Sequence record: NC_049950.1
Direction: 5' to 3' (one strand)
Length of the DNA: 46,288 nucleotides
Origin: Escherichia phage 2H10
Notes under the pieces: model-generated
What the model was told of the DNA's origin: nothing
What the model saw: the letters and a program-made list of their open reading frames with translations, nothing else
Databases searched by the model: none
Shown: positions 20,354 to 29,667 of the stretch, one piece after another
Position numbering within the stretch: position 1 is the stretch's first letter
Layout of the letters: every line of letters begins with the position of its first letter
Program-made: the position numbers and the translations under genes

Positions 20354-20363
20354 TGGGGTGAAT

Positions 20364-23300
20364 ATGGCAGTAAAGATTTCAGGTGTACTGAAAGACGGCA
20401 CAGGAAAACCGGTACAGAACTGCATAATCCAGCTGAAAGCAAAACGTAACAGCACCACGGTGGTGGTGAACACGCTGGCCTCAGAAAATCCGGATGAAGC
20501 CGGGCGTTACAGTATGGACGTTGAGTACGGTCAGTACAGCGTTATTCTGTTGGTGGAAGGGTTCCCGCCGTCACATGCCGGGACCATCACCGTGTATGAA
20601 GATTCCCGACCCGGTACGCTGAATGATTTTCTCGGTGCCATGACGGAGGATGATGCCCGTCCGGAGGCATTGCGACGTTTTGAACTGATGGTGGAAGAGG
20701 TGGCGCGTAACGCGTCCGCAGTGGCACAGAACACGGCAGCCGCGAAGAAGTCAGCCAGTGATGCCAGCACATCTGCCAGTGAGGCGGCAACCCATGCGAC
20801 TGATGCTGCAGATTCAGCACGTGCAGCCAGCACGTCAGCCGGACAGGCCGCGACGTCGGCTCAGGAGGCTTTTTCCAGCGCAGGAACGGCATCAGCAAAA
20901 GCCTCTGAGGCATCAAAAAGTGCTGCCGCTGCAGAGTCCTCAAAAAGCGCGGCGGCTACCAGTGCCGGTGCGGCGAAAACGTCAGAAACGAATGCGGCAG
21001 CGTCACAACAATCAGCAGCCACTTCTGCATCCACCGCGGCCACGAAAGCGTCAGAAGCAGCCACTTCAGCACGGGATGCGTCGGCTTCAAAAGAGGCGGC
21101 AAAATCATCAGAAACGAACGCAGCCTCGAGCGCCAGCAGCGCAACTTCCTCGGCAACGGCGGCAGCAAATTCTGCGAAGGAGGCAAAAACGTCCGAGACG
21201 AACGCTAAGTCTTCTGAAACGGCAGCGGAACAGAGTGCCTCCGCAGCAGCAGACTCAAAAACAGCGGCTGCATCATCTGCCAGCGCCGCGTCAACAAGTG
21301 CCGGGCAGGCCTCAGCCAGTGCCACCGCTGCCGGAAAGTCGGCAGAAAGTGCCGCATCATCCGCTTCAACAGCCACAACGAAGGCTGGCGAAGCCACTGA
21401 ACAGGCCAGCGCAGCAGCGAGTTCTGCTTCCGCAGCGAAGACATCCGAAACGAACGCGAAAGCGTCGGAAACCAGCGCAGAATCCTCAAAAACGGCTGCC
21501 GCATCGTCCGCCAGTTCGGCGGCGTCATCGGCATCATCTGCGTCTGCTTCAAAAGATGAGGCGACCAGACAGGCGTCAGCAGCAAAGGGCAGCGCCACGA
21601 CGGCATCCACGAAGGCGACAGAGGCAGCTGGCAGTGCGACGGCGGCAGCTCAGAGCAAAAGTACGGCGGAATCCGCGGCAACGCGCGCCGAGACAGCGGC
21701 AAAACGGGCAGAGGATATTGCATCCGCCGTGGCGCTTGAGGATGCGAGCACGACGAAAAAGGGGATAGTACAGCTCAGCAGTGCGACCAACAGTACGTCT
21801 GAAACGCTGGCGGCAACGCCAAAGGCAGTAAAATCAGCCTATGACAATGCAGAGAAACGTCTGCAGAAAGACCAGAACGGCGCTGATATACCCGATAAGG
21901 GACGCTTCCTGAACAACATTAACGCGGTCAGTAAAACAGACTTTGCTGATAAGCGTGGTATGCGTTATGTGCGGGTTAACGCTCCTGCAGGTGCAACATC
22001 TGGAAAATATTACCCTGTTGTTGTTATGCGTTCTGCTGGCTCAGTAAGCGAACTGGCATCAAGGGTCATTATCACCACGGCAACGCGAACCGCAGGCGAT
22101 CCGATGAATAACTGCGAGTTTAACGGATTTGTTATGCCTGGTGGCTGGACTGACAGGGGGCGTTATGCTTATGGAATGTTCTGGCAATATCAAAACAATG
22201 AACGAGCCATCCACTCAATAATGATGAGTAATAAGGGCGATGATTTGCGCTCTGTGTTCTATGTTGATGGCGCTGCTTTCCCTGTTTTTGCGTTTATCGA
22301 AGATGGCCTGTCAATATCCGCACCTGGTGCTGATCTCGTTGTTAATGATACGACCTATAAGTTTGGGGCAACAAATCCAGCGACTGAATGTATCGCGGCG
22401 GACGTTATCCTTGATTTTAAGAGTGGGCGTGGTTTTTATGAGTCTCATTCGTTAATCGTTAACGATAACTTGTCGTGCAAAAAACTTTTTGCCACAGACG
22501 AAATTGTAGCGCGTGGTGGTAATCAGATTCGAATGATAGGTGGGGAGTATGGTGCATTATGGCGTAATGATGGCGCTAAAACTTACCTGCTGCTTACCAA
22601 TCAAGGTGATGTTTATGGTGGCTGGAATACATTAAGACCGTTTGCTATTGATAACGCAACCGGCGAGCTGGTTATTGGAACCAAACTGTCCGCAAGTCTG
22701 AACGGTAATGCATTAACAGCAACAAAGCTGCAAACGCCAAGACTGGTTTCTGGTGTTGAGTTTGATGGTTCCAAAGATATTACTTTAACCGCCGCGCATG
22801 TGGCTGCTTTTGCCAGAAGAGCAACGGATACGTATGCCGATGCGGATGGGGGCGTTCCATGGAATGCCGAATCAGGCGCTTACAATGTCACCCGCTCTGG
22901 CGACAGCTATATTCTGGTTAACTTCTATACCGGAGTCGGAAGTTGCCGGACCCTGCAGATGAAGGCGCATTACAGAAATGGAGGTCTGTTCTACCGTTCC
23001 TCAAGAGATGGCTATGGTTTTGAGGAAGACTGGGCAGAAGTTTATACCTCGAAAAATCTTCCACCAGAAAGCTACCCAGTCGGCGCACCAATCCCGTGGC
23101 CATCAGATACCGTTCCGTCTGGTTATGCCCTGATGCAGGGGCAGACTTTTGACAAATCTGCATACCCGAAACTTGCAGCCGCTTATCCGTCAGGCGTGAT
23201 CCCTGATATGCGTAGCTGGACGATTAAGGGCAAACCTGCCAGTGGTCGGGCCGTATTGTCTCAGGAACAGGACGGCATTAAATCGCACACCCACAGCGCC

Positions 23301-23717
23301 AGCGCATCCAGTACGGATTTGGGGACGAAAACCACATCGTCGTTTGATTACGGCACTAAATCCACGAATAACACCGGGGCGCATACGCACAGTGTGAGCG
23401 GTACAGCCGCAAGTGCCGGAAACCATACTCATAGTGTCACAGGCGCATCAGCAGTCAGCCAGTGGTCACAAAATGGGTCAGTACATAAGGTAGTGTCTGC
23501 GGCCAGTGTGAATACAAGTGCTGCAGGAGCGCACACTCATAGTGTCAGCGGCACAGCTGCATCTGCAGGTGCTCACGCACATACTGTCGGTATTGGTGCT
23601 CATACGCACTCTGTTGCGATTGGCTCACATGGACACACCATCACCGTTAACGCTGCTGGTAACGCGGAAAACACCGTCAAAAACATCGCATTTAACTATA
23701 TTGTGAGGCTTGCATAA
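20364..23717 (+). CDS. stf: Side tail fibre protein (Rac StfR-type, long form)
   Basis: [19 protein letters not shown]... N-terminus and ...[19 protein letters not shown]-terminus match lambda Stf. The ~1117-aa length, Ala/Ser/Thr-rich centre and HxH repeats resemble K-12 StfR. Confidence 0.9.
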
Positions 23718-24292
23718 TGGCATTCAGAATGAGTGAACAACCACGGACCATAAAAATTTATAATCTGCTGGCCGGAACTAATGAATTTATTGGTGAAGGT
23801 GACGCATATATTCCGCCTCATACAGGTCTGCCAGCAAACAGTACCTATATTGCACCGCCAGATATTCCGGCTGGCTTCGTGGCTGTTTTCAACAGTGATG
23901 AGGCATCGTGGCATCTCGTTGAAGACCATCGGGGTAAAACGGTTTATGATGTAGCGTCAGGGGACGCGTTATTTATTTCTGAACTCGGTCCGTTACCGGA
24001 AAATGTTACCTGGTTATCGCCGGAAGGGGAGTTTCAGAAGTGGAACGGCACAGCCTGGGTGAAAGATGCAGAAGCAGAAAAACTGTTCCGGATCCGGGAG
24101 GCGGAAGAAACAAAAAACAGCCTGATGCAGGTAGCCAGTGAGCATATTGCGCCGCTTCAGGATGCTGCAGATCTGGAAATTGCAACGGAGGAAGAAATCT
24201 CGTTGCTGGAAGCATGGAAAAAGTATCGGGTATTGCTGAACCGTGTTGATACGTCAACTGCACAGGATATTGAATGGCCAGCACTGCCGTAG
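23717..24292 (+). CDS. tfa: Tail fibre assembly protein
   Basis: [34 protein letters not shown]..., lambda Tfa. Confidence 0.9.
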
Positions 24293-24389
24293 GGTAAAAC
24301 ATATAAATTCTATAATTAGATGTATCTTTCCATTTACGGCAAGGAAGGGGGCTTGGAAGACGTAAAGCATCTCACACCAAGATTATTTT

Positions 24390-24980
24390 TTATATGTCAG
24401 GTGTCTGAAGTTTTGCTTTGGCTCTTAAAATGGTTTGCCGCGAGGTTTTGAATTCCCGGGCAATGGCACTTATACTTACACCTGACTTAATCCGTTCGAA
24501 TACCACCTGTTTCTGTTCTTCATTTAACACAGGTGGTCGACCAAAACGTTTCCCTGCGCCCCGGGCTCTTACTATCCCGGAATGAGTGCGTTCAAGTAAA
24601 AGGTCTCGTTCAAATTCAGCGACTGCTGAAATTACTTGCATCATCATTTTTCCTGTTGGACTGGTCAGGTCAATGCCCCCCAATGCTAAGCAATGCACTC
24701 TGATACCTGTTTCGGTCAGTTGTTCCACTGTTTTCCTGATATCCATTGCATTACAACCAAGGCGATCCAGTTTTGTCACAATCAATTGATCACCACATTT
24801 CAGGCGAGCAAGCAACCGGTTAAAACCAGGACGCTCACTGGTTGCTGCTGAGCCGCTAATGTGTTCTTCGATTATTTGCTGAGGTTTGATTTTAAAACCT
24901 GCACTTTCGATTTCCCGGCGTTGATTTTCGGTGGTCTGATCCAGCGTTGATATCCGACAGTAAGCAAAAATTCGAGACAT
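24390..24980 (-). CDS. pin: Serine recombinase, Pin/Gin/Hin-type DNA invertase
   Basis: 196 aa, [20 protein letters not shown]... (catalytic Ser motif) with a C-terminal HTH. Recognised as PinR/PinQ-like. Convergent with tfa as in Rac. Confidence 0.9.
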
Positions 24981-26091: not shown

Positions 26092-26134
26092 TTGAAAAAC
26101 CGCAGACACGTCGTATGCAAGAACGTGCTGCGGT
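26092..26134 (-). terminator. Rho-independent terminator downstream of dinI homolog
   Basis: Minus strand: ACCGCAGCACGttcttgcatacgaCGTGtCTGCGGT followed by TTTTTC. Confidence 0.65.
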
Positions 26135-26201
26135 TAGCTGGTGAACTTCCGATAGTGCGAGTATTGAATGATTTCCAGCCGTTACCGATTTTACGTGTTA
26201 A

Positions 26202-26450
26202 TTAGTGAACAAACCACTCGTCAGCAGACTCCCAGGTATCTTTCAGAGTTTCCTGAACAAAAGTTTTAGCTGAATCTTTATCGGCGGTGCGCGTAACAGA
26301 AAGGCCATCGTTGCTGGTGGCTTTTACGATCACCTCTACATCGTCATAACGCTTACTGATGCGTCGAGTTAATTCTTCCTTTAATGCATCCACAGCACCG
26401 TTTGGCATTTTAGTCATTTTCTCTTTGGCTATGCAGATCTCAATACGCAT
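26202..26450 (-). CDS. dinI: DinI-family DNA-damage-inducible protein
   Basis: 82 aa, [11 protein letters not shown]...[23 protein letters not shown]...[10 protein letters not shown], typical DinI-fold sequence. SOS boxes lie upstream. Confidence 0.85.
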
Positions 26451-26465
26451 AAAAATCCCTCTACA

Positions 26466-26481
26466 CTGTGTTTGTATACAG
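26466..26481. promoter_or_regulatory. LexA (SOS) box, proximal
   Basis: CTGTgtttgtatACAG fits CTGT-N8-ACAG. It lies 16 nt upstream of the dinI start. Confidence 0.7.
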
Positions 26482-26493
26482 TGTTATTTTTAA

Positions 26494-26509
26494 CTGTATG
26501 AATAAACAG
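26494..26509. promoter_or_regulatory. LexA (SOS) box, distal
   Basis: CTGTatgaataaACAG fits CTGT-N8-ACAG with an AT-rich spacer. Confidence 0.75.
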
Positions 26510-26534
26510 TGTCAATAGAACAAAGATTGCTGCA

Positions 26535-26952
26535 TGTACAAATGTTCTTTGGCTACAAATACACCTACTGATCATGTTCTGCTATGCTCTGATACCTCCA
26601 AAATGTACAATCAGCGGCATGAATTTTTCTTTGTACATATGATTGTACATAATCAAAGAGACAACAATTATGACAAGCCTTTTGGCCGCAGAGGTAGCGA
26701 AAAGAAGAACCTTTGCAATTATTTCTCACCCCAATAATTAATCCCAAATTAAAGCTCTTTTACTCTTTCAAAATCCTTTCAGTTAATTGAGGTCTAGTTA
26801 TATAACTCATTTAAATACATATGGTTATGTGGCTTCTTTAATTGAAAATTCTTTCATGTAACTTTAAATCGATCAGGTTGCTTTCATCAAAAATCTGTAC
26901 ATATGCTTGTACATAATGTACAAAGCAGCAGAGGTGTTTTGCGATTTGTACA
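26535..26952. repeat. Array of 8 TGTACA-core motifs flanking the attP core (candidate Int arm-type sites and/or operators)
   Basis: TGTACA at 26535, 26604, 26632, 26644 (left of core) and 26896, 26908, 26917, 26947 (right of core). Includes the perfect palindrome TTGTACATAATGTACAA at 26907-26923. Confidence 0.5.
26670..26741 (+). other. attP core region carrying a surrogate 5' end of host prfC (RF3)
   Basis: The short ORF [23 protein letters not shown] shares [14 protein letters not shown] with the N-terminus of E. coli RF3 ([28 protein letters not shown], from memory). It lies 220 nt upstream of int. Confidence 0.7.
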
Positions 26953-26961
26953 AGGTGAGTA

Positions 26962-28185
26962 ATGGCGCTGTCTGATGCGTGGTTGCGTTCAGTCGTTGGA
27001 AAGGAACGTGATAAGGTTTTGGTTAAATCCGATCGTGATGGTCTGTCTGTCAGAGTATCACCGAAAGGTCGCGTAGTGTTTCAATATCGTTATCAATGGG
27101 CAGGGAAAGGTGAGCGTCTTGATATCGGAACTTACCCGGCAACTGGATTAAAAGAGGCCAGAGAAGAAGTTATCCGTCTCCGTGGTGAACTCGAGTCAAA
27201 CCGTAATCCACGATTGGTCAAGCAGGCTGAAAAACGAAAAGCTACTGAAGCCATGACGGTAGAGTCTGTGATCCGTGCCTGGTATGAAGCATATTGTGTA
27301 AAAAATAAAAAGGGTTCTGAACAGATACTCCGCTCGTTTGAGCTGCACCTGTTCTCTAAAATCGGGAATATCCCTCACGATGCAGCTACATTGCATGATT
27401 GGTTAGAAGTCCTGGAGCCTCTTAGCACTAAGACTCCAGCAATAGCAGACCGATTGCTAATTAACGCAAAGCAGGCCCATGTCTGGGCGTATAAGAGAAA
27501 GCTTATTGAAACTCGCCCGCTGTCGGATATCACGGGTAAAGATATGGATATCCGTAAAGGTCAGAAGAAACGGTTTCTGACACACGATGAAATTAAAATT
27601 CTTTATGCTGCGATCGATGGCTCTAGAATGGTTCCCAAATACCGGGCCTTCATTAAACTATTACTGCATTTTGGTTGCCGTAGTTCGGAGCTAATTACTG
27701 CTAGGGTGGGTGATTTTGATTTCATAAATAAGGTATGGACTGTACCACCTGAACGACATAAGACAGGGGACATAACAGGCGAACCGCTAAAGCGGCCCAT
27801 TATTGAACCGGTTGAAGAGCTTATAAAATACGTTATCTCTATGAACAACGGTTCCGATATGCTTTTTACTAAGGAAGGAAGCAGGGAGCCAGTCGGTAGG
27901 ACATCATTACAGTCGCTGCCTTACAATTTAATGCAGTACGCGTGGCGGCGTTTAGGATATCAATTCCCTCATTGGTCTCTTCATGACTTGAGACGGACAG
28001 CACGAACAAATTTTTCTGATCTTACTGCGCCTCATATCGCAGAAATTATGCTTGGTCATAAGCTGCCAGGGGTATGGCAAGTTTATGATAAGAGCGATTA
28101 TCTAGAAGAACAGCGTAAAGCTTACCTGGCATGGTGGAAGAGGGTTGAATCGATTGTTAATTGTACTATCTCTGATTCAAACTGA
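26962..28185 (+). CDS. int: Tyrosine integrase, P4-type (N-terminal DUF4102-like arm-binding domain)
   Basis: 407 aa. N-terminus ...GLSVRVSPKGRVVFQYRYQWAGKGERLDIGTYP. C-terminal catalytic motifs are HDLRRTARTN, LGH and a Tyr in VYDKSDY. Confidence 0.9.
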   Translation: MALSDAWLRSVVGKERDKVLVKSDRDGLSVRVSPKGRVVFQYRYQWAGKGERLDIGTYPATGLKEAREEVIRLRGELESNRNPRLVKQAEKRKATEAMTVESVIRAWYEAYCVKNKKGSEQILRSFELHLFSKIGNIPHDAATLHDWLEVLEPLSTKTPAIADRLLINAKQAHVWAYKRKLIETRPLSDITGKDMDIRKGQKKRFLTHDEIKILYAAIDGSRMVPKYRAFIKLLLHFGCRSSELITARVGDFDFINKVWTVPPERHKTGDITGEPLKRPIIEPVEELIKYVISMNNGSDMLFTKEGSREPVGRTSLQSLPYNLMQYAWRRLGYQFPHWSLHDLRRTARTNFSDLTAPHIAEIMLGHKLPGVWQVYDKSDYLEEQRKAYLAWWKRVESIVNCTISDSN

Positions 28186-28470: not shown

Positions 28471-29190
28471 ATGTCAAAGTTAAAAAATGAACCATTAGTA
28501 AGGGTATCAGAAGAAGACGGAATAGAAATAAGGAAGATCCAATATCCAGATAATACGATAGAAAGAGTTTATAAGCAGAAAGGTGTAATATTACCACGAA
28601 TACCTTTAAAAGGCCGCTTTGTAGAACAATATGTGGCCTTACAGTTGCTGGATAAAGATCTTCGGAATGTTATTGGTTGGGAGAATATAATAAAAAACAT
28701 TTGTAATAACATTAATAGAGAACAACACTTTATTTATCCTGATTTAGAAAAGAATCTAATATTAAAGTCTTTATTTATATCAAAAGTTGTTACTTACGGT
28801 AAGTGTTTTACAGAGGCGAAAGGGCGTCGATTCACATTGCAGAGAAAGCATGTGCCAGAAAAATACAGAGATTTACATGATTCTATTATGAATGTTAGAC
28901 ATAACTTTGCTGCCCATAAAGGTGAATTTGAATATGATCAATGTGGCTTGGTTTTAATATTGCCGGGGACCAAGAAAAAAAGGTGCTATCATATTTTTTC
29001 AGAACTCAATCAAATAAATTATGGTAATAATGAGGAAGATGATGAACGTTTTTTTATGTTATATGATTCACTGCGTAAAGTCATTAAAGAAAAACGAGAT
29101 AAATTAATTGATAAAATATACGCTGAAAAGATTCATACTCAAACAATGGAGTATTGGTTGAGCCGAACAGGAAAAGAAACAGAGATTTAA
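28471..29190 (+). CDS. Unrecognised 239-aa protein with HEPN-like R-x5-H motif (candidate Abi/defence moron)
   Basis: RBS AGAGGG 5 nt before the ATG. Strongly AT-rich codons. Contains ...IMNVRHNFAAHKGE... (R-x5-H) after a helical segment. Lies between int and xis and converges on xis. Confidence 0.7.
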   Translation: MSKLKNEPLVRVSEEDGIEIRKIQYPDNTIERVYKQKGVILPRIPLKGRFVEQYVALQLLDKDLRNVIGWENIIKNICNNINREQHFIYPDLEKNLILKSLFISKVVTYGKCFTEAKGRRFTLQRKHVPEKYRDLHDSIMNVRHNFAAHKGEFEYDQCGLVLILPGTKKKRCYHIFSELNQINYGNNEEDDERFFMLYDSLRKVIKEKRDKLIDKIYAEKIHTQTMEYWLSRTGKETEI

Positions 29191-29472: not shown

Positions 29473-29667
29473 TTAATCAATCACTCCCGCAAATCTGTAA
29501 ATCTTGTGTGATGCCCATTTATTTGGGCAGGATTTAATATCAGGATCTGGAAAGTCAGGCCTGTATTTCTGGCCAGTTCTCCTGTTTACGCTGTTCCAGC
29601 GAAGAACTGTCGATACTGAAACACCACAGAAATCGGCGACTTGTTTAGTTGTCATTAAGTTGTTCAT
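29473..29667 (-). CDS. xis: AlpA/MerR-type excisionase-like HTH protein
   Basis: 64 aa, ...TTKQVADFCGVSVSTVLRWN...FPDPDIK..PNKW. Last gene of the early-left operon, next to int. TAATG overlap with the upstream gene. Confidence 0.7.
   Translation of the reverse strand: MNNLMTTKQVADFCGVSVSTVLRWNSVNRRTGQKYRPDFPDPDIKSCPNKWASHKIYRFAGVID

Follow-up and report, generated by a model that had tools for sequence, protein, structure and literature searches.

Why should a temperate phage carry, ahead of its integrase gene, a very short ORF that reads like the beginning of a host protein, release factor 3 (RF3)? The question is raised by Escherichia phage 2H10 (NC_049950.1), of which a stretch of 46,288 nt was analysed at its full length and is referred to here as the window. 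A first-pass annotation, made from the letters alone, had pointed out a 23-codon ORF with RF3 residues about 290 nt 5' of int and had proposed the RF3 gene, prfC, as the integration target. We conclude with high confidence that positions 26501-26961 are the attP of a lambda-like temperate phage whose Int recombines with the 5' end of host prfC, and that the phage-supplied 5' end restores the RF3 ORF.

The phage copy of the RF3 N-terminus and its junctions with prfC

The attachment region and the genes on its two sides contain the following features.

26202-26450, minus strand: dinI-like gene (Pfam DinI), which becomes the direct upstream neighbour of the hybrid prfC at attR
26655-26661, plus strand: AAAGAGA, a purine-rich stretch at which ribosomes likely bind for the phage-supplied start, by direct reading of the sequence
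26670-26741, plus strand: replacement 5' end of prfC, a 23-codon ORF (ATG...TAA), by direct reading and translation
26691-26717, plus strand: diverged copy of prfC codons 9-17 (EVAKRRTFA), with 8 mismatches in 27 nt against K-12, all silent
26718-26731: common core O, ATTATTTCTCACCC, 14 bp, RF3 codons I18-P22, the sole stretch identical in attP and attB
26717-26739: core-type site geometry; AATTATT (26717-23) and AATAATT (26733-39), a perfect inverted repeat of 7 bp, enclose the 9-nt TCTCACCCC (26724-32)
26962-28185, plus strand: int, tyrosine integrase of 407 aa (Pfam Arm-DNA-bind_3, PF13356; Phage_int_M, PF22022; Phage_integrase, PF00589; phrog_1)

The mini-ORF was found where it had been described, its start lying 292 nt 5' of int and 219 nt 3' of the divergent dinI-like gene, and the RF3 N-terminus that the first-pass annotation had given is an exact match to the translated prfC of K-12 (NC_000913.3). 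All 14 residues of the RF3-like block are identical to K-12 RF3 residues 9-22, and the corresponding 42 nt differ from K-12 prfC at nine positions, all of them synonymous. Upstream of the core the divergence is silent throughout (8 of 8 differences), which indicates that selection acts on the RF3 peptide. Around the ATG, AATTATGAC is the same in phage and K-12 in the att alignment, and at the other end the mini-ORF of attP enters the P' arm and stops two codons past the core.

Five sequences went into the att alignment. Besides the window and the genome of phage cdtI, these were the unoccupied K-12 site and two junctions, dinI-prfC from E. coli S88 and yjjG-prfC'-int from a Stx2c prophage record. 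The window and cdtI have the pattern POP', K-12 is BOB', S88 is POB' (attR) and the left end of the Stx2c prophage is BOP' (attL). The core, which encodes I-I-S-H-P directly ahead of the RF3 P-loop, is exactly the 14 bp that GenBank record LC727876 annotates as "duplication due to insertion" at 408-421 (attL) and 50001-50014 (attR); this single prophage record has both ends, and its right end runs from the phage ATG into the prfC body as a hybrid ORF. The crossover had previously been placed near codons 8-22, but nucleotide identity limits it to 14 bp in codons 18-22. Similarly, aligning attP with prfC, as had been suggested, does define an identical core (26718-26731), but the EVAKRRTFA stretch upstream of it uses different synonymous codons. 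The presumed overlap region, in which strand exchange would take place between the half-sites AATTATT and AATAATT, is TCTCACC(CC), i.e. codons 20-22, inside the 7-bp inverted repeat; the putative cleavage points are placed by conservation and symmetry only.

At attR in S88, RefSeq annotates an intact prfC of 528 aa that starts with MTSLLAA at the phage ATG, directly after the divergent dinI-like gene, and that matches K-12 RF3 at 521 of 521 residues from EVAKRR on. What the phage contributes to this junction, in frame with the prfC body, is an ATG with its ribosome-binding region and seven N-terminal codons. At attL the native start remains as a 24-codon stump (..HPNN*), which PGAP calls as a truncated pseudogene between yjjG and int. 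Using a 131-nt probe across the hybrid junction (coverage of at least 80%) and a corresponding native probe for the K-12-type site, we found the hybrid junction in 700 of 5426 complete E. coli genomes (~13%) and the native junction in 4717. Several earlier proposals are thereby borne out: prfC as the target, by the att alignment, the abundant lysogens and the presence of attL and attR in one record; the gain at attR of a phage start codon and seven new N-terminal residues, by the S88 gene; the position of dinI upstream of the hybrid prfC, by the S88 annotation of a dinI-like gene followed by prfC; and the idea that a genome search would uncover prophages at prfC whose ends could be inspected, by the 700 genomes and by LC727876.

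When random sets of eight substitutions were placed in the 27-nt EVAKRRTFA block, none of 300,000 kept the peptide. For this reason, and because the 700 genomes have this P arm joined to the body of prfC, the likeness of the mini-ORF to RF3 is not due to chance. In outline, Int would recombine attP with the prfC 5' end at the 14-bp core; integration leaves the host promoter-like site and the stump at attL, and joins the phage 5' end to the prfC body at attR.

Candidate arm-type repeats, integrase and spread of the module

Further features of the arms and of the region around int are listed here.

26535-40, 26604-09, 26632-37 and 26644-49: P-arm TGTACA repeats, candidate arm-type Int binding sites
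26896-901, 26908-13, 26917-22 and 26947-52: P'-arm TGTACA repeats, candidate arm-type Int sites and possible int operator
26501-28167, plus strand: portable att-int module (P arm, core, P' arm, int), common to cdtI and Ayreon (megablast)
29473-29667, minus strand: probable excisionase, or recombination directionality factor (phrog_1553 excisionase, E 6e-36; weak NCBIfam Xis matches)

Eight of the 14 TGTACA sites of the window fall within 26535-26952 (binomial P about 1e-13), and a 22-nt direct repeat, TGTACATATGnTTGTACATAAT, is present on both arms (26632-53 and 26896-917). The last two P-arm copies are a tandem pair spaced by 12 nt, which precedes the mini-ORF ATG by 25-37 nt. The GTACA repeats flanking the core are probably arm-type Int sites, which on both arms would position Int; the native K-12 prfC site has no GTACA pair, unlike unrelated prophage attR junctions, where the tandem pair stands equally far from the core.

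All three Pfam domains of Int (PF13356, PF22022, PF00589) score over the gathering threshold, and they are, in order, P4-like arm-binding, central and catalytic. In an alignment of 14 sequences no variation is seen at R240, K267, R344, H366 and Y375, and H341 is conserved to at least 90%; the R-K-H-R-H-Y catalytic roles are putative assignments made by position and motif (HDLRRT, LGH..9..Y). Among NCBIfam families none is specific for this Int, the best match, PRK09692, being far under its cut-off.

The Int alignment was used to scan one genome per species, which gave 80 loci. In 17 of these, with Int about 45-99% identical, a truncated RF3 start lies 197-235 nt upstream of int; in 16 of them the RF3 fragment runs into a stop after another 0-9 codons, and in one MAG it reads on in a non-RF3 frame. 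The hosts are gamma- and betaproteobacteria and include E. coli, Pantoea stewartii, Serratia, three Pseudomonas, Marinobacterium, Methylomonas, Burkholderiaceae, Methylibium, Variovorax, Halomonas, Microbulbifer and Marinicellulosiphila. All 17 are attL junctions at prfC. Among Int relatives that are 41-49% identical (from Xenorhabdus, Photorhabdus, Morganella, Acinetobacter and Shewanella) the RF3 fragment is absent throughout the 9-kb loci, and the target specificity of Int appears to switch at roughly 45-50% Int identity. A Rhodoferax MAG has an int remnant, covering residues 217-378 only, ~1.9 kb upstream of an apparently intact prfC start, and this locus looks like a decayed prfC-integrated element.

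The P' arms of 15 attL loci (Int 45-99% identical) could be compared. In most of them one can recognise a tandem GTACA pair, 45-65 nt 5' of the int ATG, and a third copy, 15-25 nt 5' of it, and the remaining arm sequence has diverged; a half-site NNAYAWT, loosely conserved with exceptions, is found at the same offset after CACCC in the attL loci of other species. For distant P arms a scan of IMG/VR with the Int alignment was uninformative, returning only E. coli prophage ends that start at int. A pattern search of IMG/VR for a GTACA pair, then the core, then the P-loop codons did find attR junctions, located beside tail-fibre (J-like), baseplate (P2-like) or Dam methylase genes of quite different phages. 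In these, the GTACA pair has 12-nt spacing and precedes the start codon by 22-37 nt (37-49 nt in the L168 group), and the RF3 N-terminus differs in each (MKDLSFAQQVAS.., MSNEINR.., MTNSSIADQVKR.., MSNQEFLNEINR.., MSDIQQAHEVGL..). The stored stretches of these loci contain no int. Since unrelated attR junctions share the GTACA pair and yet have their own RF3 N-termini, the order of arm sites, start codon, recoded N-terminus and core is, on the sequences compared, a conserved portable layout.

Within E. coli phages, cdtI is 95.7% identical to the window over 26093-28167 by megablast, rising to 99.6% over the P arm and mini-ORF, and the match to Ayreon begins at 26501. For the P arm (26515-26745), 31 phage records show an identity of 98.7-100%, and the module as a whole (about 26501-28167) also occurs in PhiR63_1 and in 27 Stx1a/Stx2c prophage records, where the P arm and the core-to-int segment are at opposite ends. 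Outside the module the window is a lambda-like siphovirus, and its genes for terminase, portal, tape measure and tail fibres are ~97% identical to those of phages Turner and PhiR34_1; the structural genes are nearest to Turner, PhiR34_1 and Kati, and megablast of window 1-25000 against lambda-like phages gives 92-95% coverage. A lambda-type structural module, int and xis (phrog_1, phrog_1553) and an early region were all found, as in a lambdoid temperate phage. In E. coli 13P484A an intact attP (dinI, ORF, int; NZ_CP019281.1 19850-20365, 97% identity) lies in a separate 33.7-kb record, which may represent a related phage in excised or extrachromosomal form.

Several observations concern the genes around the module. 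Directly 3' of int there is an ORF of 239 aa (28471-29190; phrog_8440, unknown function), for which we found no match in Pfam or PADLOC. The same position is taken by a dGTPase-family gene in E. coli KKo009 and by a 2.1-kb ORF in cdtI, and because these three occupy one position it looks like a variable cargo slot. On the other side, a serine invertase gene (Resolvase and HTH_7; 24390-24980, minus strand) directly follows the tail-fibre and tail-fibre-assembly genes (region 20358-24980), and together these are probably an invertible host-range switch; in the S88 counterpart of this region the tail-fibre-assembly gene is truncated.

Elements that share the prfC target or the replacement principle

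When phages integrate into genes, as phage 21 and e14 do at icd and other phages do at tRNA genes, attP contains a second, diverged version of one end of the target gene, Campbell's "replacement end", with which integration regenerates the gene intact. Phage 21 and e14 replace the 3' end, so that host promoter and start are kept, whereas the module of the window replaces the 5' end. Since it is the 5' end of prfC that is replaced, the signals for initiation of both transcription and translation must come from the phage.

The phages closest to the window at this site are cdtI and the Stx phages. According to a report of 2007, phage cdtI integrates at prfC. The gene is also a documented integration locus of Stx1a and Stx2c phages. 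Phage cdtI (AB285204 / NC_009514) and the Stx1a/Stx2c prophages at prfC have essentially the same att-int module as the window, and the same 14-bp duplication is annotated in the GenBank records; the window differs from them in cargo and in the remaining genome, and has no cdt or stx genes at the arm. The Int of cdtI clusters with IntSXT, both inserting at prfC (Smyshlyaev et al., PMC8138268), and from that placement of the cdtI Int together with the 95.7% nucleotide identity of the module to cdtI, the Int of the window would also group with IntSXT.

SXT/R391 elements integrate at the prfC 5' end (Hochhut & Waldor 1999) and, like the window, do so with a tyrosine integrase and with the ORF kept intact. 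The SXT core, ATCATCTCGCACCCTGA, covers the same I-I-S-H-P(-D) codons as the core of the window, and so does the attP of ICESh392 (ATCATCTCTCACCCTGA, I-I-S-H-P-D), for which integration is described as leaving the ORF unaltered. However, SXT/R391 are conjugative elements with tra genes and setCD/setR, whereas the window is a lambda-like siphovirus that is SXT-like at the att site and not an ICE. We recognised no SXT/R391 integrase among the 80 Int-relative genome loci, nor by a tblastn search of Int against plasmids. Integrative elements specific for dusA (IMEVchUSA3; Durand et al. 2021) likewise target a conserved housekeeping gene at its 5' end, but differ in target gene, integrase lineage and element type, being mobilisable islands; for these, the same principle at another gene has reporter evidence (Durand et al. 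2021). The att-int module of the window is thus already known: it is of the cdtI type and works like SXT/R391 at the same codons, and the principle is established for SXT/R391 and for the dusA islands. The supply of a promoter to prfC has been demonstrated by experiment for SXT only.

Expression of the hybrid gene and what it means

In K-12, a promoter-like TTGCCT-16-TAAAAT lies 63 nt upstream of the prfC ATG (2825-2852 of our locus L004). After integration this host site remains at attL, where it faces the 24-codon stump and then int. Since there is no terminator-like site in attL from the host promoter-like site to int, int may be read from the host promoter in lysogens. On the attR side, because the host promoter-like site is left behind at attL and the sole upstream neighbour is the divergent dinI-like gene, hybrid prfC needs transcription from phage DNA, which would start from a promoter inside the ~170-nt P arm. 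One weak candidate can be seen there.

26584-26611, plus strand: ATGCTC-16-TACAAT, weak candidate promoter for hybrid prfC (8 of 12 positions match; below scan threshold)

This candidate sits roughly where the K-12 TTGCCT-16-TAAAAT falls in the att alignment. A consensus promoter scan of 26150-27050 gave minus-strand sites only, including the dinI promoter, and no plus-strand P-arm site at threshold; the lone plus-strand "terminator" in the scan of the same interval is a palindromic LexA-box-like repeat. We also considered the P arm as a diverged copy of the host promoter, and rejected this, since a comparison of 26451-26669 with the 220 nt upstream of K-12 prfC gave z = 1.4, a score reached by 17 of 200 shuffles. 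The first-pass annotation had suggested a phage promoter that would bring RF3 under phage-arm control; this follows from topology and from the analogy with SXT, but no plus-strand P-arm site at scan threshold accompanies it. Phage-arm control of RF3 in lysogens is a sound topological inference, one backed by selection on the coding part. Two LexA-box-like CTGT-N8-ACAG sites (26466-81, 26494-509) overlap the minus-strand TTGACA-18-AAAAAT promoter-like site of the dinI-like gene, which suggests that an SOS-controlled gene lies back to back with hybrid prfC at attR.

One may also consider a rather unlikely extension, in which the P arm carries an outward-facing promoter overlapped by the GTACA Int sites and integration amounts to a reciprocal promoter swap with the host site, as for Pcirc of ICEclc. 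In the circular phage the P-arm promoter would then transcribe attP, the mini-ORF and int, there being no terminator-like site in 26742-26961, and once integrated it would drive hybrid prfC. If this were true, int expression would be tied to the integration state, and the RF3 level in ~13% of E. coli would be tied to Int arm occupancy.

An alternative explanation, other than restoration of RF3, is that integration effectively inactivates prfC, the hybrid ORF being without useful transcription or translation and the lysogens RF3-deficient. The gene is dispensable in E. coli, so that an intact ORF is no proof of use, and the P arm lacks a consensus promoter. Bobay et al. moreover counted prfC among the genes "disrupted" by prophages (PMC3603311). 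Nevertheless we find this scenario quite improbable, since the RF3 peptide is kept through eight silent changes, which is expected only with a translated and selected hybrid; an ATG, a ribosome-binding-like region and in-frame RF3 residues are retained in each of the unrelated phages; the hybrid, whose body is otherwise identical, occurs in 13% of complete E. coli genomes; and SXT, which inserts at the same site, reportedly brings a working promoter with it. We therefore argue that prfC is repaired, not disrupted, by prophages at this site, and the hybrid RF3, which differs from the native protein in its first residues only, would be functional.

The likeness to prfC might instead be a by-product of Int recognition, i.e. 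of extended DNA homology between attP and attB, rather than of selection to restore RF3, and the core and left half-site do fall within coding sequence. We regard this as highly improbable, since upstream of the core the DNA is not conserved (8 of 27 nt differ) while the peptide is identical at 9 of 9 residues, and recombination needs no start codon, reading frame or purine-rich ribosome-binding region. That the window is not attP at all but a chromosomal junction from a host with a native MTSLLAA RF3 deserves next to no credence, as it has the mini-ORF itself and nothing further in its favour, whereas phage DNA lies on both sides (tail-fibre genes, invertase and dinI to the left; int, xis and early genes to the right), the mini-ORF stops two codons past the core, lysogens have the left half joined to prfC and the right half joined to yjjG-prfC', and the circular cdtI genome record has the same arrangement.

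Restoration of the RF3 ORF by a phage-supplied 5' end thus remains our preferred explanation, and the analysis establishes where this phage integrates and how its att region is built. The layout, conserved in distant Proteobacteria, provides a search signature for such elements: a tandem GTACA pair is followed by a start codon and, beyond it, by the core in the P-loop codons. An RF3 with a phage N-terminus and, presumably, with phage expression signals is encoded by roughly one complete E. coli genome in eight, ExPEC, APEC and non-O157 STEC strains among them. Hybrid prfC bears on annotation, on core-genome and pseudogene calls, and possibly on translation-termination physiology in lysogens.
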